Source: Candidatus Poribacteria bacterium | GTDB lineage: Bacteria > Poribacteria > WGA-4E > PCPOR2b | Reading direction: 5' to 3' | Length of the DNA stretch: 64,000 bases | Assembly: GCA_965116925.1 (NCBI GenBank) | Contig: OZ220744.1 | Location: forward strand, 4,544,001 to 4,608,000 | The notes under the pieces: model-generated | What the model was told of the DNA's origin: nothing | Seen by the model: only the letters and a program-made list of their open reading frames with translations | The model's database searches: none | Program-made: the position numbers and the translations under genes | In this document: positions 26,313 through 42,201 of the stretch, piece by piece | Position numbering within the stretch: the stretch's first letter is position 1 | Layout: every line of letters begins with the position of its first letter

Positions 26313-27503
26313 ATGAACCCGGAAGACTTCAAAAATTCAACTGCTGGTAAATGCCTTCGTATAATAACCCAGCCTCCATATTGGGCTTATGTACCGAATC
26401 CACTCCCACCAAAAATCGAACTGGATTGGGATTTGGCGAGCCTGCTATCAGAAGCAGACAGTAGGCTTGGGGAGTTATCCGGTGCAGGTCAACTGCTTCC
26501 GAATCCACATCTGTTGATTAGACCATTTATTCGGCGTGAAGCTGTAACTAGTTCAAGAATTGAAAACACTCAATCCGGTTTGGACGACCTCTTTTTCTTT
26601 GAGGCGGATGAAACAGAACGACCTCCTATGTCCGATGTAACAGAGATTATCAACTATGTCCTAGCCATGGAATATGGAATTAAACGATTGGAGGATTTGC
26701 CGATTAGTTATAGGCTCATCTGTGAAATACACGAGATCCTAATGAAGGGGGTGCGGGGTGAAAATGCAACCCCGGGGCAAGTGCGAACGAGCCAAAATTG
26801 GCTTGGTAGCCCCGGATGTACTTTGATGGAGGCAACTTATGTTCCTCCGCCAGTGCCAGAAATGCAGCGGTGTTTTTCGGACTTGGAAAGATACATACAT
26901 TCCAACGCAAAAGGACCAGCACTAATCCAGTGCGCTCTGGTTCATTATCAGTTTGAAGCAATTCACCCTTTTGTTGATGGCAATGGAAGAATCGGTAGGC
27001 TTTTGATCACGTTTATGTTATTGGAAAGGAGCTTGCTATCGCAGCCTCTCCTGTATCTTTCCGATTTTTTTGAACAGCACAGGGACGAGTATTATAGATT
27101 GCTGCTGAACGTAAGCCAAAAAGGGGACTGGAAGGCGTGGATCACATTTTTCTTAAACGGAGTTCGTCAACAGTCAGAAGATGCCCTTTTGACGATTCAA
27201 AAATTGCGTGCTCTACAAAACCGATACAAAGAAATTGCAGTCGGTCAAAGGGTGCCAAAGATTGTAAATCACTTAATTGACTATCTGTTTGCAAGTCCTG
27301 TTATTTCAGTTTCAGCATTATCGAAGACTTGGGAAATAACGTATTCTACCGTTCAGCGAGGGGTGAACTACCTTATCGAAAAAGGCATACTCCAGGAAAT
27401 AACTGGAGGCCAGCGAAACCGTCTGTTTGTTGCACATGAGATATATAATATAATCATGACAGAGAGAACAAAATCAATGAATCCAAAGAAGGATGTGATA
27501 TGA
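26313..27503 (+). CDS. Fic family protein with N-terminal inhibitory motif and C-terminal HTH
   Basis: HPFVDGNGRIGR catalytic motif; SSRIEN fits (S/T)xxxE(G/N). Confidence 0.92.
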   Translation: MNPEDFKNSTAGKCLRIITQPPYWAYVPNPLPPKIELDWDLASLLSEADSRLGELSGAGQLLPNPHLLIRPFIRREAVTSSRIENTQSGLDDLFFFEADETERPPMSDVTEIINYVLAMEYGIKRLEDLPISYRLICEIHEILMKGVRGENATPGQVRTSQNWLGSPGCTLMEATYVPPPVPEMQRCFSDLERYIHSNAKGPALIQCALVHYQFEAIHPFVDGNGRIGRLLITFMLLERSLLSQPLLYLSDFFEQHRDEYYRLLLNVSQKGDWKAWITFFLNGVRQQSEDALLTIQKLRALQNRYKEIAVGQRVPKIVNHLIDYLFASPVISVSALSKTWEITYSTVQRGVNYLIEKGILQEITGGQRNRLFVAHEIYNIIMTERTKSMNPKKDVI

Positions 27504-28936
27504 GCGAAACGGGTGTAGATTTATCTGAGTTGCCCGATGGGTGGGTATGGACGACGGTTAGAAGTGCTGTTGAGAAAGTGTCTCTAGGCAAAAAGAAACT
27601 TCAACAAAAAAACTATGAAACAGTAGGAAAGCTTCCGGTTATAGACCAAGGACTGTCTTTTATTGGTGGATATACTAATCATGAGGAACTAACAGTTGAG
27701 TGTCAGTTACCGATTGTAGTTTTTGGTGACCATACTAAGGCATTCAAGTATGTGGATTTTGATTTTGTAGCTGGTGCTGATGGAATAAAGGTGATTAGAC
27801 CTCAAGAAATGTACTATCCCAAACTGTTTTATTATTTTGCACGAGCAATTTCACTTCCAGAGAAAGGATATGCGAGACACTTTCAATTCCTAGAAAAGGC
27901 ACCAATTCCCCTTCCCCCACTTCCTGAACAACATCGCATCGTCGCCAAAATTGAAGAGCTTTTCACCAAACTTGATGCGGGCATAAACGAACTCCACAAG
28001 GCACAATCCCAACTCAAGCGCTATCGCCAATCCGTTCTGAAAGCTGCCTTTGAAGGCAAATTGACCGAAGAGTGGCGACTGGAACATCAAGACGAGATTG
28101 AACCTGCTTCTGTACTACTTGAGCGCATTCTCAAAGCGCGGCGCGAGAAGTGGGAGGCAGAGCAGCTTGAGCAGATGCAGGCAAAGGGGAAAATACTCAA
28201 AGATGATAGATGGAAGGCGAAGTATAAAGAACCTATTGCACCTGATACGAACAATCTACCCGAATTGCCAGAAGAGTGGACTTGGGCAACTGTTGAACAA
28301 CTCTTGACAAAAATCCAATACGGTTCCTCAAAAAAAACAGGTGATGATTCAAATGGTGTACCTGTGCTGAGGATGGGGAATATTGTTGACGGTAACATCG
28401 CTCCTGATAATCTGAAGTACCTCCCGAAAGAACACGATGAATTTCCAGAATTGTTGCTAAATAAAGGCGATTTGCTATTCAATCGCACAAATAGCCGTGA
28501 ATTAGTTGGCAAAACGGCAGTTTATACAGGAAACCCCAATCCATGTTCGTTTGCTTCATATTTGATTCGGGTACAGTTTAATCTACATATTGATTCGATG
28601 ATTGTAGCGTACTATATTAACTCCGTGTATGGTAAAAATTGGATTTTATCGGTCGTGTCTCAGCAGGCGGGGCAGGCAAATGTAAACGGCACAAAACTCA
28701 AACTTCTTGCAGTGCCTATGCTACCAGAAAAAGAGCAGCAGATCCTTGTCGAAGAAGTTGAACGCCATCTCTCCGCTGCCGACGAAGTAGAGAAAACCAT
28801 CACGGCGGAACTGAAACGCGCCGAGCAATTGCGGCAGTCCATTCTCAAAAAAGCCTTCTCCGGAAAACTGGTGCCGCAAGACCCGAACGATGAGCCTGTC
28901 AGCGTCCTGCTTGAGCGGATCAAAGCAGAGAAATAA
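27500..28936 (+). CDS. hsdS: Type I restriction-modification specificity subunit
   Basis: LPDGWVW, PLPPLPEQHRIVAKIEEL, RQSVLKAAFEGKL, second TRD, SILKKAFSGKLVPQDP. Confidence 0.94.
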   Translation: MSETGVDLSELPDGWVWTTVRSAVEKVSLGKKKLQQKNYETVGKLPVIDQGLSFIGGYTNHEELTVECQLPIVVFGDHTKAFKYVDFDFVAGADGIKVIRPQEMYYPKLFYYFARAISLPEKGYARHFQFLEKAPIPLPPLPEQHRIVAKIEELFTKLDAGINELHKAQSQLKRYRQSVLKAAFEGKLTEEWRLEHQDEIEPASVLLERILKARREKWEAEQLEQMQAKGKILKDDRWKAKYKEPIAPDTNNLPELPEEWTWATVEQLLTKIQYGSSKKTGDDSNGVPVLRMGNIVDGNIAPDNLKYLPKEHDEFPELLLNKGDLLFNRTNSRELVGKTAVYTGNPNPCSFASYLIRVQFNLHIDSMIVAYYINSVYGKNWILSVVSQQAGQANVNGTKLKLLAVPMLPEKEQQILVEEVERHLSAADEVEKTITAELKRAEQLRQSILKKAFSGKLVPQDPNDEPVSVLLERIKAEK

Positions 28937-28937
28937 A

Positions 28938-28966
28938 TTGCTTTTTGGTGAAAATTGTGTTATAAT
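28938..28966 (+). promoter_or_regulatory. Sigma70-type promoter immediately after hsdS
   Basis: TTGCTT-17 bp-TATAAT with extended -10 TG. Confidence 0.6.
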
Positions 28967-29035
28967 TAGTGTGATTAAGTAATAATATTAGTGTGAATAG
29001 AATTTTATTATTTACAAGATTTACGCACTTGAGAG

Positions 29036-29290
29036 TTTTGACCTGTCAGGGACCTGCCAAATCCCTGACATTTGGCGAGGTTATGGCGACATTTCGGTGA
29101 AAAACGGTTCATAAATAGTGCGTATTTGGCAGGTCAAAAAGCCGTCTGCACGCTCCTTCTGTTGGGTGGTAAAAATCTACAAATGCTCTGAAGCTAGGCC
29201 CCATCAGGGTTCAAAGCGATACCGGCAAATGATGAACCCCTGATGTGAGGTTGAATTTTTTTTTGGACCTGCCAGGGCCCTGCCAAATTG
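29036..29290. repeat. Cluster of direct and inverted GACCTGCCAAAT-type repeats and hairpins
   Basis: ~26-bp direct repeat at 29038 and 29262, inverted copy at 29124-29139, stems TGTCAGGGA/TCCCTGACA and CATCAGGGTTCA/TGAACCCCTGATG. Confidence 0.7.
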
Positions 29291-29598
29291 CCGAATCGTA
29301 CGGGGGTGAGATGTAAATAGCGATACCGATTTGCTTCATTTTTTTTCTTGTATATTTTAGAAAAAGAACCTGATATAATGATTGTCAAGTAAAAAAACGC
29401 CCCCAAATGGCTGGATATTTAGAGAGATTTCTTTTTCTCAGATACCGCTGTCAATTGGGGTTGATCTGTATACCATCAGCATGATTGCAAAACTTTTTGG
29501 TTTTCTGGTTAGAGAGGCATATAGAAAAGAACTTAGTGGGATGTAAAATAAGGGCTTATCGGCATACCCATTTCCTGTATTCACGGTCGGTGAACGTT

Positions 29599-30678
29599 AT
29601 GGACAATAAATCAAAATCAATATCCGCGGTAGATCTATTTTGTGGGGTTGGTGGTCTGACATACGGGCTTGAGCAAGCCGGCATAAAGGTGAACGCGGGG
29701 ATTGACATTGACGAAACGTGCAAATATGCCTACGAGGAAAACAACGAGGCAGACTTTATCTGCAAAGACATCGCTTCAGTAACCGACGAATATCTCTCCT
29801 CGTTATACCCAGAAGGCGACATCAAACTGCTCGTTGGGTGCGCCCCATGCCAACCGTTTTCCTATCATATGCGCAAATTCAAAAATCAAATACCTGACGA
29901 TCGGTGGGGAATGCTCGCTAACATGCAGGAATTAATCAAGAAGGTTAAGCCTGAAATTGTCTCCATGGAGAATGTTCCACTCATCCAAAAACATCAGGTT
30001 TTTACAGATTTTGTTGATACGCTTGATGATTTAGACTATCAGGTTCATCATGAGGTAGTATACTGCCCCGATTATGGGGTGCCGCAGAAACGCCGCCGTC
30101 TTGTACTCATTGCTTCTAAGTTTGGAGAGATTGTCCCTCTTCCTAAAACGTACGCCCCCTCTGAGCAAAAGGGTTTGAAATCCTATCAGGTCGTCAAGGA
30201 TGCCATTGGTGGCCTCCCCGCAATCACAGACGGTCAAGTGTGTGACAAAGACCCTCTTCATCGGTCGCGGAACCTCTCGGTCCTCAACAAAGAACGGATA
30301 AAACAGTCCTCGCCCGGCGGGACGTGGTTAGATTGGGATACTGAGCTGCGTGCCCCGTGCCACCAGAAGGCATCAGGCGCAACTTACAAGTCTGTTTACG
30401 CCCGTATGGAATGGGATAATCTTGCCCCGACCATCACAACACAGTTTTATTCTTTCGGTACAGGGCGGTTCGGCCATCCCGAGCAAGACCGAGCACTATC
30501 ACTCCGAGAGGGGGCACTTCTGCAAACATTTCCTTCAGATTACGACTTTATAGACCCGGCTGTCTCTATCTCATTCACGCGCATAGGTGTCCATATCGGA
30601 AACGCAGTCCCTGTCCAACTCGCAACAGTTATCGGTCAAAGTATCCAAAAGCACTTGGAGGCGGTCAACTATGAGTGA
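29599..30678 (+). CDS. DNA (cytosine-5) methyltransferase
   Basis: DLFCGVGG (motif I), APCQPFS (IV), ENV (VI), PQKRRR (VIII), REGALLQTFP, IGNAVP. Confidence 0.95.
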   Translation: MDNKSKSISAVDLFCGVGGLTYGLEQAGIKVNAGIDIDETCKYAYEENNEADFICKDIASVTDEYLSSLYPEGDIKLLVGCAPCQPFSYHMRKFKNQIPDDRWGMLANMQELIKKVKPEIVSMENVPLIQKHQVFTDFVDTLDDLDYQVHHEVVYCPDYGVPQKRRRLVLIASKFGEIVPLPKTYAPSEQKGLKSYQVVKDAIGGLPAITDGQVCDKDPLHRSRNLSVLNKERIKQSSPGGTWLDWDTELRAPCHQKASGATYKSVYARMEWDNLAPTITTQFYSFGTGRFGHPEQDRALSLREGALLQTFPSDYDFIDPAVSISFTRIGVHIGNAVPVQLATVIGQSIQKHLEAVNYE

Positions 30679-32668
30679 ACTCAAGTACGAAATGAGTATC
30701 AGCCTTAACGTCCTCAACCACCTTGGAATCAAACTTTACAGCAATGTGCCCGCGGTTTTGTCTGAGGTGGTTGCCAACTCTTGGGATGCCGACGCTTCAG
30801 AAGTTGATATTGAAATTGAGGATGGCAAAATCACCATCACTGATAATGGACACGGCATGACGTATGATGACATTAACAACAAGTACCTTACTGTTGGATA
30901 CGATCGCCGTGAGGAGGATAAGAAGCGGAATATGGTGCAAACCACCAACTACAAACGCCCCGTTATGGGGCGCAAGGGTATCGGGAAGCTATCTCTCTTT
31001 TCAATTGCCGATACTGTTGAGGTTCAGACCATTAGAGATGGGATAAAGAACGGCTTTGAGATGTCGGCGCGGAAGATTGAAAAACAAATTCGTGAACAAG
31101 GTGGCAATACCTATCACCCCGATTCGCTGCAGGATGACAAAATCACTCTTGATAGCGATGGAACGCGGATTGTCCTCACAGAACTAAAGAAACGAGTATA
31201 CCAAACCCCCATTGCCTTGAGAAAACGACTGGCGCGACGGTTCAGCATCATTGGAACAAAATATTTCACAGTTCGCATCAATGGCGATTCGGTTACAATC
31301 GCTGATCGTGACTACTTCCATAAACTCCACTATTTATGGCATTACGGCGAAGGAAGTGAGAAGTACGTAGATTTGTGCAACTCAAAAAAACTTGAATACC
31401 ACGAACCGGGAGATGGTCAAATTGGAGTAAAAGGAGAAGATAACACTGAGGTGGATAGATATCAAGTAACAGGTTGGATTGGCACGGTCAAAGAAGCACT
31501 AGATGTCAACGATCCCGATGACAACCTCAACAAAATCGTCATCATGGTTCGTGGGAAACTGGCACAGGAAGATATCCTTGAAGACTTTACTGAAGGTGGA
31601 TTATATACAAAGTATATCATCGGCGAAATCCACGCCGATTTCTTAGATCTTGATGACCAAGACGATATTGCAACAAGTAACCGTCAAGAGATTATCAAGG
31701 ATGACCCGCGATACGTAGCAATTAAGGACTGGGTTCAAGTCGCATTGAAAAATATTGAGAGTCAGTGGAGACACCGGCGTAAAGAAGCAGGGGCAAAAGA
31801 AGCCAGACGTATCCCTGCAATTGATGAATGGCTGAAGAGCTTGGATTCAGATAAGCGCAGGCAAGCAAAAGAAATGTTTGGAAAAATTGGTGAACTCACT
31901 TTGAAAGAAAAGGAGAGAATTGAACTATATAAGTATAGCGTATTAGCGTTTGAAAACCTTAGATACAAAGGCTCACTTTCTGCCCTCAATAATGTATCTC
32001 CCGCAAACCTCCAAGAATTTACCCAAATCTTCGCAGAACTGGATGATATTGAAGCCTCGCTTTACTACCAAATCGTTCAAGAGAGGCTGCAGATAATTGA
32101 TACCTTACGTGACCAAGCTAGGGACGATGTAGTTGAAAAGGTAATACAAAAACATCTCTATGAGCACCTCTGGTTACTCGATCCTTCTTGGGATAGGGCG
32201 ACAGAAACTCCGTTGATGGAGCAAAATGTTAGAGCTGCCTTTGATGAGGTTGATGCGACCCTAACTGAGGAAGAGAAAAGGGGCCGGTTTGACATCAAAT
32301 ACAAAATGACATCGGGGAAACATGTCATTATTGAACTTAAACGCGCCGGACGGAAATTAAGAAGTACCCAACTACAAGATCAAGTTGATAAATACAGAAA
32401 TGCGCTGAGAAAGATTGTTCAGGCAACAGGGAAGAACGAACCGATTGAAGTAGTATGCCTTGTCGGGCAACGACCTGAGGATTGGGAGACTTCTGAACAA
32501 GAGGATGAATCTAGGAGAGCTATGGAAGCCAAGAATACGCGAGTCGTTCTGTACCAAGGACTCATTGAGGATGCCTATAGGAGTTACCAAAAATTTCTGG
32601 AGCAGCAAGAAAAAGCGGGTCGTGTCTATGAACTCATTAAAAATATTGAGATTGAGAATGAATCGTAA
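30671..32668 (+). CDS. GHKL/MORC-type ATPase fused to a PD-(D/E)xK nuclease; probable cognate restriction endonuclease (HgiDII-like, tentative)
   Basis: EVVANSWDA, DNGHGM, GRKGIGK, GT GHKL motifs; C-terminal FDI...IIELKR; start overlaps the MTase stop. Confidence 0.8.
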   Translation: MSELKYEMSISLNVLNHLGIKLYSNVPAVLSEVVANSWDADASEVDIEIEDGKITITDNGHGMTYDDINNKYLTVGYDRREEDKKRNMVQTTNYKRPVMGRKGIGKLSLFSIADTVEVQTIRDGIKNGFEMSARKIEKQIREQGGNTYHPDSLQDDKITLDSDGTRIVLTELKKRVYQTPIALRKRLARRFSIIGTKYFTVRINGDSVTIADRDYFHKLHYLWHYGEGSEKYVDLCNSKKLEYHEPGDGQIGVKGEDNTEVDRYQVTGWIGTVKEALDVNDPDDNLNKIVIMVRGKLAQEDILEDFTEGGLYTKYIIGEIHADFLDLDDQDDIATSNRQEIIKDDPRYVAIKDWVQVALKNIESQWRHRRKEAGAKEARRIPAIDEWLKSLDSDKRRQAKEMFGKIGELTLKEKERIELYKYSVLAFENLRYKGSLSALNNVSPANLQEFTQIFAELDDIEASLYYQIVQERLQIIDTLRDQARDDVVEKVIQKHLYEHLWLLDPSWDRATETPLMEQNVRAAFDEVDATLTEEEKRGRFDIKYKMTSGKHVIIELKRAGRKLRSTQLQDQVDKYRNALRKIVQATGKNEPIEVVCLVGQRPEDWETSEQEDESRRAMEAKNTRVVLYQGLIEDAYRSYQKFLEQQEKAGRVYELIKNIEIENES

Positions 32669-32898
32669 ATGCGAAAAATGATGCAATCCAAAAACCTCAT
32701 CACCAGCGTTCTGTTTCCCTGCCCTGGGCATTCAGGTTACTCGGCGTGCTGAAGATGAAGATCCATTTGAACCACAGAATTATTGGGCTAGCAGATGGAA
32801 AGTTAATGCGATAGATCGAATCTATCCACTAGCATGGTTTACAGCCAATGCGTATACTGTTTATCTGACTGATATAAATACAGGAGAACCCTCCAAAA

Positions 32899-34356
32899 AT
32901 GTCAAACGATTCATCAGCCATTGTGCAAAAACTGTGGAATTATTGTAACGTCCTTCGCGATGATGGGATCAGCTATGGCGACTATGTGGAGCAGTTGACC
33001 TACCTTCTGTTTCTGAAAATGGCGGACGAGCAGACCAAACCGCCGTTTAGAAAAGAGTCCGTTGTTCCTGTAGGGCTAGACTGGGAGAGTCTCGTTGACA
33101 AGGAGGGAGCCGACCTTGAAACGCATTATCGCCAGATCCTCGACATGTTGGCACTGGAGAGCGGTACGCTAGGGGTGATCTTCAGAAAATCCCAAAACAG
33201 GATCCAAGACCCCGCCAAACTCAAGCGAATCATTCAACTGATCAACGATGAAACATGGATCGGGTTAGATATCGATGTGAAGGGGGACATTTACGAAGGG
33301 TTATTGCAGAAAAACGCAGAAGATATCAAAAGCGGTGCGGGCCAATACTTCACGCCCCGTCCCCTAATCAAGGCAATCGTAGAGGTGATGAAACCGGAAC
33401 CGAAGCAAACCATCTGCGATCCTGCATGCGGCACCGGCGGTTTTTTCTTAGCAGCCCATGACTATCTATCGAGCAAGAGCGACCAACTTGATAGAGAGCA
33501 GAAGCAGTTTCTCAGAGACGGGACCTTTCACGGTGTGGATCTTGTGGACAGTGTGGTGAGGCTATGTGTGATGAACCTGCACCTTCACGGCATCGGTGGA
33601 GATAAGAGTCCTGTGGAAACAGGGGATAGCCTGATTTCGGATACGGGTGAGCGTTTTGACATGGTATTGACCAATCCGCCCTTTGGCAAGAAGAGTAGCA
33701 TCACAATTGTAGATGAAAAGGGAGGGGCGGGAAAAAACGCGCTCACATACGAGCGGGAAGATTTTTGGGCGACCACCTCCAACAAGCAGCTTAACTTCCT
33801 TCAGCACGTCAAAACAATTCTGGAAATCAATGGCAGGGCAGCGGTTGTTGTGCCGGATAACGTCCTATTTGAAGGGGGCGCGGGGGAAACCGTTCGCAGG
33901 AAACTGCTGCACGAATGCGATGTCCATACATTGCTTAGACTCCCGACGGGCATCTTTTACGCACAAGGTGTCAAGGCAAATGTGCTGTTCTTCGACCGCA
34001 GACCCGCCAGCGAAACCCCGTGGACAGAGAAACTGTGGATATACGACCTACGCACCAATCAGCGATTCACGTTGAAAACGAAACAGATGCGCTACGACGA
34101 CCTTCACGATTTCATCGCCTGCTACAATCCCGACAACCGCCATGACCGGAAAGAGACCGATCAGTTTAAGTCTTTCTCCTACGATGAACTGATGCAGCGC
34201 GACAAGGTCAGTCTTGACATCTTCTGGTTGCGTGACGAAAGCCTTGAGGATACCGAGAATCTGCCGGAGCCTGATGAATTGGCAGAGGATATCGCTGCGA
34301 ACCTAGCTGCGGCGTTAGAGCAGTTTCAAGACATTTATGAGGGAGTCACTCAGTAA
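32899..34356 (+). CDS. hsdM: Type I restriction-modification N6-adenine methyltransferase subunit
   Basis: KLWNYCNVLRDDG, GQYFTPR, DPACGTGGF, NPPF. Confidence 0.95.
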   Translation: MSNDSSAIVQKLWNYCNVLRDDGISYGDYVEQLTYLLFLKMADEQTKPPFRKESVVPVGLDWESLVDKEGADLETHYRQILDMLALESGTLGVIFRKSQNRIQDPAKLKRIIQLINDETWIGLDIDVKGDIYEGLLQKNAEDIKSGAGQYFTPRPLIKAIVEVMKPEPKQTICDPACGTGGFFLAAHDYLSSKSDQLDREQKQFLRDGTFHGVDLVDSVVRLCVMNLHLHGIGGDKSPVETGDSLISDTGERFDMVLTNPPFGKKSSITIVDEKGGAGKNALTYEREDFWATTSNKQLNFLQHVKTILEINGRAAVVVPDNVLFEGGAGETVRRKLLHECDVHTLLRLPTGIFYAQGVKANVLFFDRRPASETPWTEKLWIYDLRTNQRFTLKTKQMRYDDLHDFIACYNPDNRHDRKETDQFKSFSYDELMQRDKVSLDIFWLRDESLEDTENLPEPDELAEDIAANLAAALEQFQDIYEGVTQ

Positions 34357-34564: not shown

Positions 34565-35128
34565 CTAACTATTCAGGAAATTTTGCAACAGCTTTTTCCC
34601 CTCGCTGGTCAAGATTGATTCTGGGTGGAACTGCACCCCCCAGATCGGATAGTTCTTGTGTCGAAATCCCATAATTTCGTCTTGATTTGTCCACGCGGTG
34701 AGTTCAAGGCAATCCGGCAGCGTCTCCTTTTTCACGATGAGAGAGTGGTAACGTGTCGCCTCAAATGGGTTTTCGAGGTCGTCGAAAATCTGCTCACCGT
34801 TGTGGTGAATCATTGAGGTTTTGCCGTGCATCAGACGTCCGGCGCGGACGACATCGCCGCCAAATACATCGCCGATACACTGATGCCCCAAGCAGACACC
34901 GAGCAGGGGAACACGCCCTGCAAACTGACGGATCAGATTGCAGGAGATCCCCGCTTCCCGTGGTGTGCAGGGCCCCGGCGATATGACAATCTTCTCAGGG
35001 GCGAGATCTTCAATCTGGTCAAGCGTGATTTTGTCGTTGCGATGGACAACAAGGTTCGCTCCCAACTCGCCGAGATATTGCACGAGGTTATAGGTGAATG
35101 AGTCGTAATTGTCAATCATAAGTATCAT
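34565..35128 (-). CDS. trpG: Anthranilate synthase component II (glutamine amidotransferase)
   Basis: [35 protein letters not shown]. Confidence 0.95.
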
Positions 35129-35139
35129 CGTTTCTTCTC

Positions 35140-35826
35140 CTAACCGTTTCTGCGGATTCTCATCATCTCATCGCCGCCTTTCTGGAACTCATAAGGTACG
35201 CGACAAATATCAACCGTAAATCCAGCTTCCAAAAAATGTGATTGGATCGGTGTAATGTAGGGTGACTTTTCGCAATTCAATGTCAACAGTGGGAAAATTC
35301 GTACCTCTTGAGAAACGCGACAGAGTTCCTGTATAGAATCCCGATGAAAATCGAAAGATAGCTGAACAGAATACAGAAAAAGCAGATGCGAGCAGAGTAC
35401 CAGATCGAACTGGGAATCGGTGAAACTGAGTGTGGGCAGAGATTCAGGCAGATAACGTCCTTGCACCTTTCCCGCCTCAAAATCTTCCAGAAACTTCCTC
35501 ATGGTCTCAAGACGGTAGTGCCCCCAATGCACTGGATCCGCAAAGAAATCCCAAACGAAGTTATCAGAGTTTTGTTCCACTTGAGAGATGAGGGGATCGT
35601 AGTTCTCTTCAATTCTCCGCTCGATCTGTGCTTTTGAAAACGAGTAGATCGGATCAATTGACAGAACCGTATGCCCCAAGGTATTCATCTCGGTGTTAAA
35701 ACTGGCAGGGCCGTCACCGACACCGAGGATACGTAAGTTCAGTTCCTCATCGGAGAGATTGAACATCTGCGTGTATTCTTGCAATGATCTGCCCCAAGGG
35801 ATGACTTGGTCGAGTTTCACACTCAC
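35140..35826 (-). CDS. Class I SAM-dependent methyltransferase-like protein
   Basis: [37 protein letters not shown]. Confidence 0.8.
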
Positions 35827-35847: not shown

Positions 35848-37332
35848 CTACTCTAATCCCGCTTCAGCGATTTCAATTGCCCTTAACACCGCTCGCGCCT
35901 TGTTGACCGTTTCTTCATACTCCGTTTCGGGCACAGAGTCTGCGACGATACCACCGCCCGCTTGGATGTAGGCAATTCCATCTTTGACGACGAGGGTGCG
36001 AATCGTGATCGCTGTGTCCGCATTGCCAGAAAAGCTGAAATAGCCAACGGCTCCGCCGTAGGGTCCCCGGCGGGTCGGTTCAAGCTCGTCGATAATCTCC
36101 ATCGCCCGGATCTTCGGGGCACCGGACAGCGTTCCAGCGGGCAGGCAGGCACGTATCACATCATAGGGGGTTTGCCCCTCGCGCAACTCTCCGATAACGT
36201 GCGAAACGATGTGCATCACATGTGAATAACGTTCGATTATCATCATCTCGCTTACGCGCACAGTATGGTATTCGCAGACGCGCCCTAGGTCGTTACGTCC
36301 GAGGTCAACGAGCATGACGTGCTCTGCCCGTTCCTTCGGGTCGGCAAGCAGTTCCATCCCCAATGCCTCATCTTCGGCTGGAGTCGCTCCACGTGGACGG
36401 GTTCCTGCGATTGGGCGCATCTCCGCAACACCGTCCTCAACGCGCACCATCATCTCCGGTGAGGCACCCGCAATCTGGAGTTCATCGAACTTGAGGTAGA
36501 ACATATAAGGCGATGGGTTGACAGTGCGCAAGGCACGATACGCATCGAATGTATCGACCGATATCGGAACACTAAAGCGCTGTGATGGCACAACCTGAAT
36601 GATGTCCCCCGCGGCGATATATTCCTTCGCCCGAAGGACAACCTGATGGTAATCGTCCTTCGTGAAGTTTGAGGTGACGGGCACACCGCTTGGACTGACA
36701 ACCGGCTTGTTTGTGTAATTCATCAACAACGGCTGCTTGAGTTTAGCGATCAGTTCGTCGATCTGATCAAGTGCTTTTTTATAGGCTTGGTCAACATCGC
36801 CGTTGATGTGGGCGTTGGCGACCACCTTGATCTGATGGTTCACATGGTCAAACACAAGCAGCGTATCGGTGACCATAAAAAAACAATCGGGTAGTTCTCG
36901 ATCATCTTCGGTAGTGTCGGGGAGTTCCTCGACGTAACGCACCATGTCGTAGTTCAGGTAGCCGACCGCTCCACCGTGAAATCGCGGCAATCCCTCGACT
37001 TCAACGGGTTGATAGTGAGCCATCAACTCTTCAAGCTCCTCTAACGGGTCTTTGCTTTTGAATTCAACCGTACCCCCGGTTCGGAGGTTATCAATCTGGA
37101 CCAGATTGCCCTTGCCCCTAAGTAGGACTGATGGATCACTGCCGAGAAACGAATATCGGGCGACGTGTTCACCGCCTTCGACGCTCTCCAGCAGAAATGC
37201 GTGGTCACTTCCTCCGATTTTGTAAAATGCGGATACAGGTGTTTCCATATCCGCCAGCATCGTCTTGTAGACGGGAATCAAGTTGCCGTGTTGTGCTTTT
37301 TCTCTAAAATCTTCTAAGTTTGGGTAATACAT
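35848..37332 (-). CDS. trpE: Anthranilate synthase component I
   Basis: LLES (Trp feedback site), [42 protein letters not shown]. Confidence 0.95.
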
Positions 37333-37352: not shown

Positions 37353-37733
37353 TCAGTATACTGCATCTGGGTCAAAAACCTTTTCACCAACAATGTGCGT
37401 AGAGTTACCATCGGGGGAGACTTCCCGAAAGAAGCAGGAACGGTAGCCGACGTGGCACGCCCCGCCTTTCTGTTCGACTTTGATTAGTAGCGCATCGGCA
37501 TCACAATCAAAGGCGACCGTTCGCACGGTTTGCGTGTGTCCTGAAGTCTCCCCCTTGATCCAGTATTCCTGGCGGGAGCGGCTCCAAAAGCAGACACGCC
37601 CTGATTCTAATGTCTTCCGCACAGCCTCGCGGTTCATATAGCCGACCATGAGGACCTCTTTGTTTTCGTCATCCTGTATAATGGCAGGAATTAAACCGTT
37701 CTGATCGGTCTTGAGTTGATTTAGGATTTCCAT
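37353..37733 (-). CDS. hisI: Phosphoribosyl-AMP cyclohydrolase
   Basis: [38 protein letters not shown]. Confidence 0.96.
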
Positions 37734-37764: not shown

Positions 37765-37806
37765 AAAAAAAGCCGTAGACAACGGGGTTCGTATGCCTAC
37801 GGCTTT
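37765..37806 (-). terminator. Intrinsic terminator (attenuator) upstream of hisI
   Basis: Minus strand AAAGCCGTAGGCA-loop-TGTCTACGGC followed by T7, about 30 nt before the hisI start. Confidence 0.85.
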
Positions 37807-37831
37807 GGTTTCTAGATATGAGTCCAAAGAT

Positions 37832-37933
37832 TTATCTCAACAAAGGCACACTGCTCCCCTCAACACGATGCCACCACCAGTGCCAATGATGAGATGCGAT
37901 TTGAAATTGTGGTTGTCGGTTCAGGGTTTGCAT
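37832..37933 (-). CDS. His/Trp-rich leader peptide MQTLNRQPQFQIASHHWHWWWHRVEGSSVPLLR
   Basis: Translated by hand: CAT CAT TGG CAC TGG TGG TGG CAT at 37868-37891; AAGG RBS; lies between promoter and terminator. Confidence 0.88.
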   Translation of the reverse strand: MQTLNRQPQFQIASHHWHWWWHRVEGSSVPLLR

Positions 37934-37970
37934 AGTACCTTTCAACTTCCTGTTTGTTCAGATTATGTAA

Positions 37971-38000
37971 AGCATATCACAATTTTAGTTTCGGTGTCAA
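37971..38000 (-). promoter_or_regulatory. Sigma70-type promoter of the leader-hisI-trpE operon
   Basis: Minus strand TTGACA-18 bp-TATGCT with extended -10 TG. Confidence 0.65.
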
Positions 38001-41699: not shown

Positions 41700-42201
41700 C
41701 TAAAATGTCCGTCCACTTGCCTGAATGAACGGTTTGAGTTCTGTGACCAATTGCCGGAATTTGTCTGGGCGGAGCGATTGCGCCCCATCGGACAATGCGT
41801 TTTCAGGATCCGGATGCACTTCGATCATCAGTCCGTCCGCCCCTGCGGCGACCGCAGCCTTTGCCATTGGATTGACATATTCCCAATGCCCTGTCCCGTG
41901 GCTCGGATCGGCGATGATAGGCAGGTGACTCATCTTCTTGATTACCGGAATTGCATTCAGGTCAAAGGTGTTCCGCGTCGCCGTTTCAAAGGTACGGATG
42001 CCCCGCTCGCACAGGATGACGTTGTAATTCCCTTCGGAGAGGATATAGCAGCTCATGCTTGCCGCGTTCGTCCCCAATCGCTGCGATGACGGTATGCTTT
42101 GTGCCCTGAATAGGATGGGGTGTATAGTTGAGTTCCCTGATTTGAGCGATGACAGCGTCAATAGATTGTTGTTCCGCTCCTACTTTCATCACGATGACCA
42201 T
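41700..42201 (-). pseudogene. aroF: DAHP synthase (type I-beta) with internal deletion and frameshift
   Basis: N-terminal MVIVMK...IGDERGKH in one frame joins [20 protein letters not shown]...DPSHGTG...IEVHPDP in another; only 502 nt. Confidence 0.85.

Follow-up and report, generated by a model that had tools for sequence, protein, structure and literature searches.

In Salmonella and E. coli, the his leader (hisL, RF00514) carries seven consecutive His codons and stands ahead of hisG and with it the entire his operon. Other leaders read several amino acids with OR logic, namely thrL (Thr, Ile), ilvL (Leu, Ile, Val) and the Phe/Tyr leaders of aro genes. In each of these multivalent leaders the amino acids stem from a single branched pathway, whereas His and Trp belong to separate pathways. 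Genes of these two pathways do stand side by side in the his-trp clusters of Actinobacteria, which also have PriA, and in B. subtilis, where hisC lies inside the trp cluster. The trp leaders of E. coli (trpL, RF00513), Bacteroidota, Rhizobiales and Actinobacteria have a short ORF upstream of trpE in which Trp codons stand in tandem. Their four-region layout (protector, antiterminator, terminator and T tract) is set out in PMC2659441 and PMC1262725.

The locus described here shares features with each of these systems and departs from each. Like the trp leaders, it has a short ORF with tandem Trp codons ahead of trpE; unlike trpL, its first gene is hisI, and His codons stand before and between the Trp codons, an arrangement seen in 1/69 of the pure trp leaders sampled. 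As in hisL, there are His codons in the leader ORF and a his gene under putative stalling control. In contrast to hisL, however, the 1 to 4 His codons of these leaders are mixed with Trp, a single his gene (hisI) is covered and there is no sequence match. Unlike thrL and ilvL, the leader mixes two separate pathways and its operon holds genes of both. The window, by which we mean the whole 64,000-nucleotide stretch analysed, comes from a genome whose closest named relatives are Ca. Poribacteria, and the element and its operon are laid out in it as follows:

37971..38000, minus strand: sigma-70-type promoter TTGACA-18-TATGCT with extended TG (-35 TTGACA at 38000-37995, 18-nt spacer, -10 TATGCT at 37976-37971, preceded by TG; promoter scan 10/12; layout recurs at homologous leaders)
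37938..37951, minus strand: purine-rich ribosome-binding region (AGGAAG..GAAAGG) of the leader ORF, seen in the sequence and retained within the genus
37832..37933, minus strand: leader ORF, 33 aa, MQTLNRQPQFQIASHHWHWWWHRVEGSSVPLLR, with homologues at 69 loci
37868..37891, minus strand: control codons H-H-W-H-W-W-W-H (codons 15-22), from codon tables
37880..37895, minus strand: region 1, predicted 5' strand of the protector helix, spanning the S-H-H-W-H codons; partner at about 37851-37834 (folding)
37844..37851, minus strand: region 2, GTGTGCCT, common to protector and antiterminator (folding; covaries with region 3 across families)
37824..37829, minus strand: CTTTGG, predicted auxiliary antiterminator helix with partner CCAAAG at 37808-37803 (fold; poorly conserved)
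37791..37798, minus strand: region 3, AGGCATAC, inner 5' arm of the terminator, which also pairs with region 2 (folding)
37765..37806, minus strand: intrinsic terminator hairpin (3:4) and T7 tract (folding)
37353..37733, minus strand: hisI, phosphoribosyl-AMP cyclohydrolase, 126 aa, monofunctional (NF000768 over cut-off; PF01502)
35848..37332, minus strand: trpE, anthranilate synthase component I (TIGR00564 over cut-off)
35140..35826, minus strand: methyltransferase-like ORF, a lineage-specific insert (Pfam Methyltransf_11 sub-threshold, E 0.003)
34565..35128, minus strand: trpG, glutamine amidotransferase subunit (TIGR00566 and NF005799 over cut-off)

The promoter, 33-codon ORF, H/W run, terminator with T7 and gene order claimed in the preliminary description were all found at its minus-strand coordinates, and translation bore out that His and Trp are confined to the run and occur nowhere else in the leader ORF. 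The promoter match by itself is not significant (2 sites vs 2.5 in shuffles); the same TTGACA-spacer-TATNNT layout was seen again upstream of most of the homologous leaders displayed. The run stands alone in its genome: among 61,304 short ATG ORFs, only the window leader has at least six H/W within eight codons. Searches with the window leader matched no leader family in Rfam to E 10, including Trp_leader RF00513 and His_leader RF00514, and returned nothing relevant from Pfam to E 1 or NCBIfam, the Pfam trp leader peptides included. A T-box or riboswitch was considered and set aside, there being no Rfam match for the window element. Of 18 RNA runs, all in the form of contigs, four were compared with the stretch: two cover it in a single contig, and none reveals starts, ends or levels.

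The order hisI-trpE-MTase-trpG also stood, as did the naming of hisI, trpE and trpG; the label "MTase" did not stand equally well, since the NCBIfam search of that ORF (35140-35826) gave no match and only the sub-threshold Methyltransf_11 hit speaks for it. The insert between trpE and trpG is present in the window and in genus g11 and missing from the other loci that were long enough to judge. Converging on trpG from the plus strand (27500-34356) are genes that look, by eye, like restriction-modification genes, presumably type I specificity-like, cytosine methyltransferase-like, 693-aa ATPase-like and type I methyltransferase-like ORFs.

How would such a leader act as a switch? RNA polymerase would initiate near 37965 and a ribosome would begin to translate the leader ORF. 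As long as charged tRNA-His and tRNA-Trp were ample, this ribosome would move past codon 24 to the stop and cover region 2 (GTGTGCCT), upon which the 3:4 hairpin would form and transcription would stop at the T tract, near 37765. A shortage of either tRNA would stall the ribosome in the H/W run, and region 2 would pair with AGGCATAC; no terminator would then form and hisI-trpE-trpG would be transcribed, an OR response to shortage of His or Trp.

We examined the folds on which this scheme depends. The window terminator hairpin (37806-37769) is predicted at -22.3 kcal/mol (z -5.5, equalled by 0/200 shuffles) and is followed by a T7 tract at 37771-37765 on the minus strand; a consensus terminator scan, limited to loops of no more than 8, did not detect this longer-looped hairpin. 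Three mutually exclusive folds are similar in strength (protector -22.1, antiterminator -20.1, terminator -22.3), and of these only the terminator lies beyond shuffles, the protector and antiterminator alone falling within them (z -0.9 and -1.4). Both alternative pairings proposed earlier, CTTTGG with CCAAAG and TGCCT with AGGCA, form in a fold of 37860-37785. The conserved antiterminator pairing is GTGTGCCT:AGGCATAC, and the CTTTGG:CCAAAG helix varies even inside the genus. The protector (1:2) helix forms in a truncated transcript and is absent from the longer equilibrium fold. Its partner varies between families: the region 1 duplex (about -17 kcal/mol) is that of families f1 and f3, and other families use other partners.

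The preliminary description had also suggested folding the leader RNA with ribosome-masked segments, and the outcome in this model agreed with the scheme: a stall on His or Trp codons is predicted to keep the antiterminator, and a ribosome at the stop to free the terminator. Here the model is one of equilibrium and the ribosome an assumed 11-nt footprint beyond the A site. In the window, the terminator arm was sequestered up to codon 23-24 and free from codon 25 to the stop. Across all leaders, placing the A site on His codons left the arm sequestered (P over 0.5) in 66/67, placing it on Trp codons did so in 68/69, and a ribosome at the stop freed the arm in 64/69. The window model without a ribosome also favours the antiterminator (0.75); therefore the model shows compatibility with the switch, not specificity for the His codons.

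Poribacteria supplied the comparison in relatives that the preliminary description had proposed, for codon runs as well as stems. hisI is present in 171/176 Poribacteria genomes, and upstream DNA was examined for part of the hisI-bearing ones, family f2 being sampled at 20/112. The leader was found at 69 of 77 hisI-first loci, in at least eight families; these 77 comprise the 72 of the main leader tally and five leaderless or cut-off loci counted as misses. The eight misses are two contig-end cuts, one long upstream frame, four leaderless loci and one decayed leader. Two of the 69 leaders share one genome, and at one locus (L096) the contig stops before trpE. The leader frame and H/W run are retained while the upstream gene differs between loci, and far relatives carry runs such as HWHWWHH, HHHWCWWH, RHWHWR, HWHWGW, HRHWRR and WWWHW. 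Two loci are peculiar: at L003, leader and terminator are tandemly duplicated upstream of hisI, the second copy beginning with the first codons of hisI, and at L012 an in-frame insertion splits the run (HHW...WH), which probably weakens the sensor.

The RNA elements are conserved along with the codons. A terminator (median -19.1 kcal/mol) is present in 69/69 leaders, as is a region-2:region-3 duplex (median -12.8, weak at about -7 in three). Regions 2 and 3 covary between families, as GTGTGCCT:AGGCATAC, GTATGCC:GGCATAC, GTGTGC:GCACAC and GGAGCGTGCCCG:CGGGCATGCTCC, and in the GTGTGC:GCACAC family the terminator is likewise altered, to CCTTATGC:GCATAAGG. These helix pairs were taken from anchored duplexes, as a mixed alignment displaces region 2 between families. 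The locus has features of leader-peptide attenuators (clustered codons for the product amino acids, a terminator before the first gene and a covarying, mutually exclusive antiterminator), and it has that of multivalent leaders, in that codons of two amino acids appear to be under selection in the control window (about three contrasts). Conservation, covariation and masked folding support the attenuator reading well. We put the probability at roughly 0.78 that this is a classical ribosome-mediated attenuator with a stall-controlled terminator and OR logic over His-tRNA and Trp-tRNA; translation of the leader ORF, termination and a response to each amino acid are predictions made at the level of sequence.

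That the ORF goes untranslated, or that the terminator is a constitutive one between the upstream epimerase-like gene and the operon, we regard as scarcely credible: the S. coelicolor ilvB leader did look classical while its codons had no regulatory effect (PMC1262725), but here the H/W run is unique in the genome, frame and run are kept as the upstream gene changes, the antiterminator covaries and a promoter of its own lies between upstream gene and leader.

Are the His codons part of the signal? We compared hisI-linked leaders with leaders of pure trp operons, drawn from trpE loci of Bacteroidota (70), Alphaproteobacteria (14) and Gammaproteobacteria (32; a class-wide search had given three usable loci and was repeated at order level); about three of the Bacteroidota picks are doubtful ORFs. 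His directly 5' of Trp (H-W) occurred in 65/69 hisI-linked Poribacteria leaders, or in 56/58 when the set was limited, as in the controls, to leaders with W-W. Among pure trp leaders it occurred in 0/44 from Bacteroidota, 0/5 from Alphaproteobacteria and 1/20 from Gammaproteobacteria, in total 1/69. The codon between Trp codons in hisI-linked leaders is His in 58/62 (51 CAT, 7 CAC), Tyr in two, Cys in one, Pro in one and Arg in none. The codon after the Trp run, in contrast, alternates between His (23) and Arg (32), and His in this position also follows the Trp run in 15/69 pure trp leaders (10/20 in Gammaproteobacteria). We therefore rejected a trailing His (W-W-H) as evidence of His sensing; its recurrence in pure trp leaders of Gammaproteobacteria and some Bacteroidota probably reflects a TGGCA pairing motif. 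Counterexamples without hisI are one Pseudoalteromonas trp leader with HHWWW and two pattern-picked Bacteroidota trp leaders with KHWWH. No His-only leader was found upstream of hisI where this gene stands alone. Two tandem Trp-rich short ORFs precede trpE in Pseudoalteromonas (L410/L481) and at L507, L508 and L514; these are possible tandem trp attenuators, with a terminator after the first ORF and, in L481, also after the second.

Poribacteria also provide a natural control. In six genomes of the phylum, trpE (or trpS-trpE) follows the leader and hisI lies elsewhere. The homologous region 2 and the terminator are kept in 6/6 of these leaders, and H-W is found in 0/6, against 65/69 with hisI. 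Their runs read KRWWY, RRWCH, SRWRH, NWCWWWR, TWCWWR and FWRWWWR. Four of them are intact (KRWWY, NWCWWWR, TWCWWR, FWRWWWR) and have no His near the run; the other two have decayed to one Trp each, with His after Trp only. One hisI-less leader aligns nearly codon by codon with that of the window (FQIARNWCWWWR vs FQIASHHWHWWWHR). In the TrpE tree, the hisI-less genomes form two separate clades, and the sister group of one of these consists of hisI-linked f4-family members with the leader runs FHHW, FHYW and QHFW. A query with a hisI-less TrpE returned mostly Paenibacillus, and 12 loci from this and the following search were examined. Three loci, L615 (Desulfobacterales), L580 and L587, had hisI-less trpE leaders (NNWWWWTALEVCPPS and AWAWRWH), and the L615 leader shares a V-C-P ending with the hisI-less Poribacteria leaders.

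The pairing of His codons with hisI is seen again in a second phylum, which, together with the contrast inside Poribacteria, favours the dual His and Trp reading advanced in the preliminary description. In Chthoniobacterales (Verrucomicrobiota), hisI-trpE-trpG stands behind leaders of 8-12 aa, for example MKLSQHWWHI, MNFNLHWWQL and MTKLWHWWHF. Out of 30 Chthoniobacterales trpE loci, 16 have hisI in front, 12 of these with a leader; a terminator was detected in 6/12 of these leaders and by the same test in none of the other six. At the 14 hisI-less trpE loci no leader was found, a Trp-only one included. H-W is present in 19/20 hisI-linked Chthoniobacterales leaders after four pattern-picked loci were dropped. 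A scan of genome contigs for HWWH with a terminator end gave at least 120 matches; among the matches listed were 36 short-ORF cases, of which seven stood before hisI (Verrucomicrobiota or unclassified entries), two before trpE (Bacteroidota) and the remainder without his or trp genes nearby.

The Chthoniobacterales leader RNA is unlike that of Poribacteria in sequence and layout, and Chthoniobacterales TrpE is nested within TrpE of other lineages whose hisF-hisI-trpE clusters lack a leader. A single TrpE clade for Poribacteria and Chthoniobacterales was rejected with p-AU 6e-6 (quick tree, LG+G4). The simplest reading of these sequences is that the H/W leader has two origins, in Poribacteria and in Chthoniobacterales, the alternative being one old origin followed by many losses. 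Because kin are not independent, Fisher p-values were set aside, and these comparisons amount to about three contrasts, which all point in the same direction and are too few for a sign test.

The strongest competitor to a dual switch is an attenuator that is Trp-only in purpose, in which the His codons are kept for protector pairing (TGGCAY, TCTCAT) and a response to His, if there is one, would be incidental or of too little strength to matter. The protector TCTCATCATTGGCAY:RTGCCTTTGYTGAGA of families f1 and f3 joins the S-H-H-W-H codons to the V-P-L-L-R codons; the His codons sit in this helix, and RNA pairing therefore also conserves them. The core codon is nearly always CAT (51/58), trailing His is frequent in pure trp leaders, three of those have H-W, and trp attenuators typically have repeated complementary triples, as stated in PMC1262725. 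Yet the pairing partner of the His codons changes between families while H-W persists, and in the six hisI-less genomes W-C-W, W-R-W and R-W-W fit into the same RNA design. Arg, which is compatible with the pairing, is absent from the core of 62 hisI-linked leaders, although at this codon it would weaken the protector duplex by only about 0-2 kcal/mol, and an Arg core codon does occur in one hisI-less leader. Finally, Chthoniobacterales show H-W with an unrelated RNA design. We consequently regard a Trp-only purpose as unlikely, and take the comparative data to argue that the His response of the leader was selected.

A broader sensor, reacting to slow translation or to aromatic amino acids (Trp, His, Tyr, Phe), or acting through the nascent peptide rather than His-tRNA as such, seems to us improbable to a greater degree. 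Some leaders have Tyr or Phe in place of His (WYWW twice, QHFW, FHYW, FHHW), but these variants number 5/69 and come mostly from a single family in which the Trp run has decayed. The remaining peptide is freely variable, from 8 to 33 aa across two phyla, and a separate leader, with Phe/Tyr/Leu codons, precedes DAHP synthase in the genome. In the masked-fold model, stalling at any position as far as codon 23 is predicted to give read-through, and PMC4046918 shows for the his leader of Salmonella that de-attenuation follows from any slow codon or codon pair within the control window. The latter observation fits a broader sensor; it also means that His starvation should act mechanically once the leader ORF is translated.

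On balance, we favour a true His-OR-Trp switch: the two-pathway leader would have had two origins, one in Poribacteria and one in Chthoniobacterales, in both cases when hisI came first before trpE, and the His codons would have been lost where hisI left the Poribacteria operon, so that the codons of the leader would follow the genes of the operon in gain as in loss.

Why would hisI and trpE share a leader? The order hisF-hisI-trpE-trpG is seen in several other phyla, among them Omnitrophota, and in other Verrucomicrobiota; no leader lies between hisF and hisI in these clusters. The order suggests that hisI was a passenger needing protection from Trp-only control. A broken cluster of this kind may have left hisI as first gene; a Trp-only switch would then shut off a His enzyme at plentiful Trp, and His codons may have been selected as an override. 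The preliminary description had instead appealed to the use of PRPP by both pathways, an explanation that is unsupported and unneeded: the PRPP-using genes hisG and trpD are located elsewhere, and the genome leader scan flagged nothing before either. Carriage of hisI from a hisF-hisI-trpE-trpG cluster accounts for the arrangement more simply. Searches for other his and trp genes placed them at scattered sites on the chromosome, hisG lying 4.4 Mb from the window operon. A PriA-type link through a shared HisA/TrpF enzyme was rejected; unlike PriA-type his-trp clusters, the window genome has a separate true trpF, so that no shared enzyme is needed. A second, divergent trpF-like gene lies at C1:2612868-2613512, and trpD is present as two near-identical tandem copies (C1:6119790-6121900, plus strand).

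Two further candidate leaders were noted in the same genome. At C1:6257798-6258000 (plus strand), a candidate attenuator precedes a class-I DAHP synthase (MKNFCPHTHIAHQTTLYFLYLYLFLLYLCCDGGRVDFASEM; terminator about -23 kcal/mol); its run of Tyr/Phe/Leu codons was found at 17/19 homologous loci. In the window itself, 41700-42161 (minus strand) holds a partial class I-beta DAHP-synthase frame that covers only the C-terminal third of the models and looks truncated. At C1:1533803-1533600 (minus strand), a Met-rich leader (core TMYMPGM) with a terminator precedes a threonine-synthase-family gene. By a simple filter, this leader is present in the window genome, in 17/19 other members of the genus and in one other genus, and in no other families; Met codons, instead of Thr/Ile, are unusual before thrC.

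We found no description of a His+Trp leader in the open-access literature, and the accessible parts of PMC4833913, PMC1183508, PMC1262725, PMC2965389, PMC4046918 and PMC2659441 describe none; a prior printed description is likely absent. If the dual reading is true, a textbook control mechanism that serves one pathway would be extended to a pair of separate pathways, and this in an uncultured phylum where gene regulation has hardly been studied. At about 240 bases, the element would be a compact two-input sensor for synthetic biology. For the evolution of leaders, Poribacteria would constitute a natural experiment, the same switch occurring with and without His codons to match the presence of hisI, and the second phylum would be an apparently independent repeat of that match.
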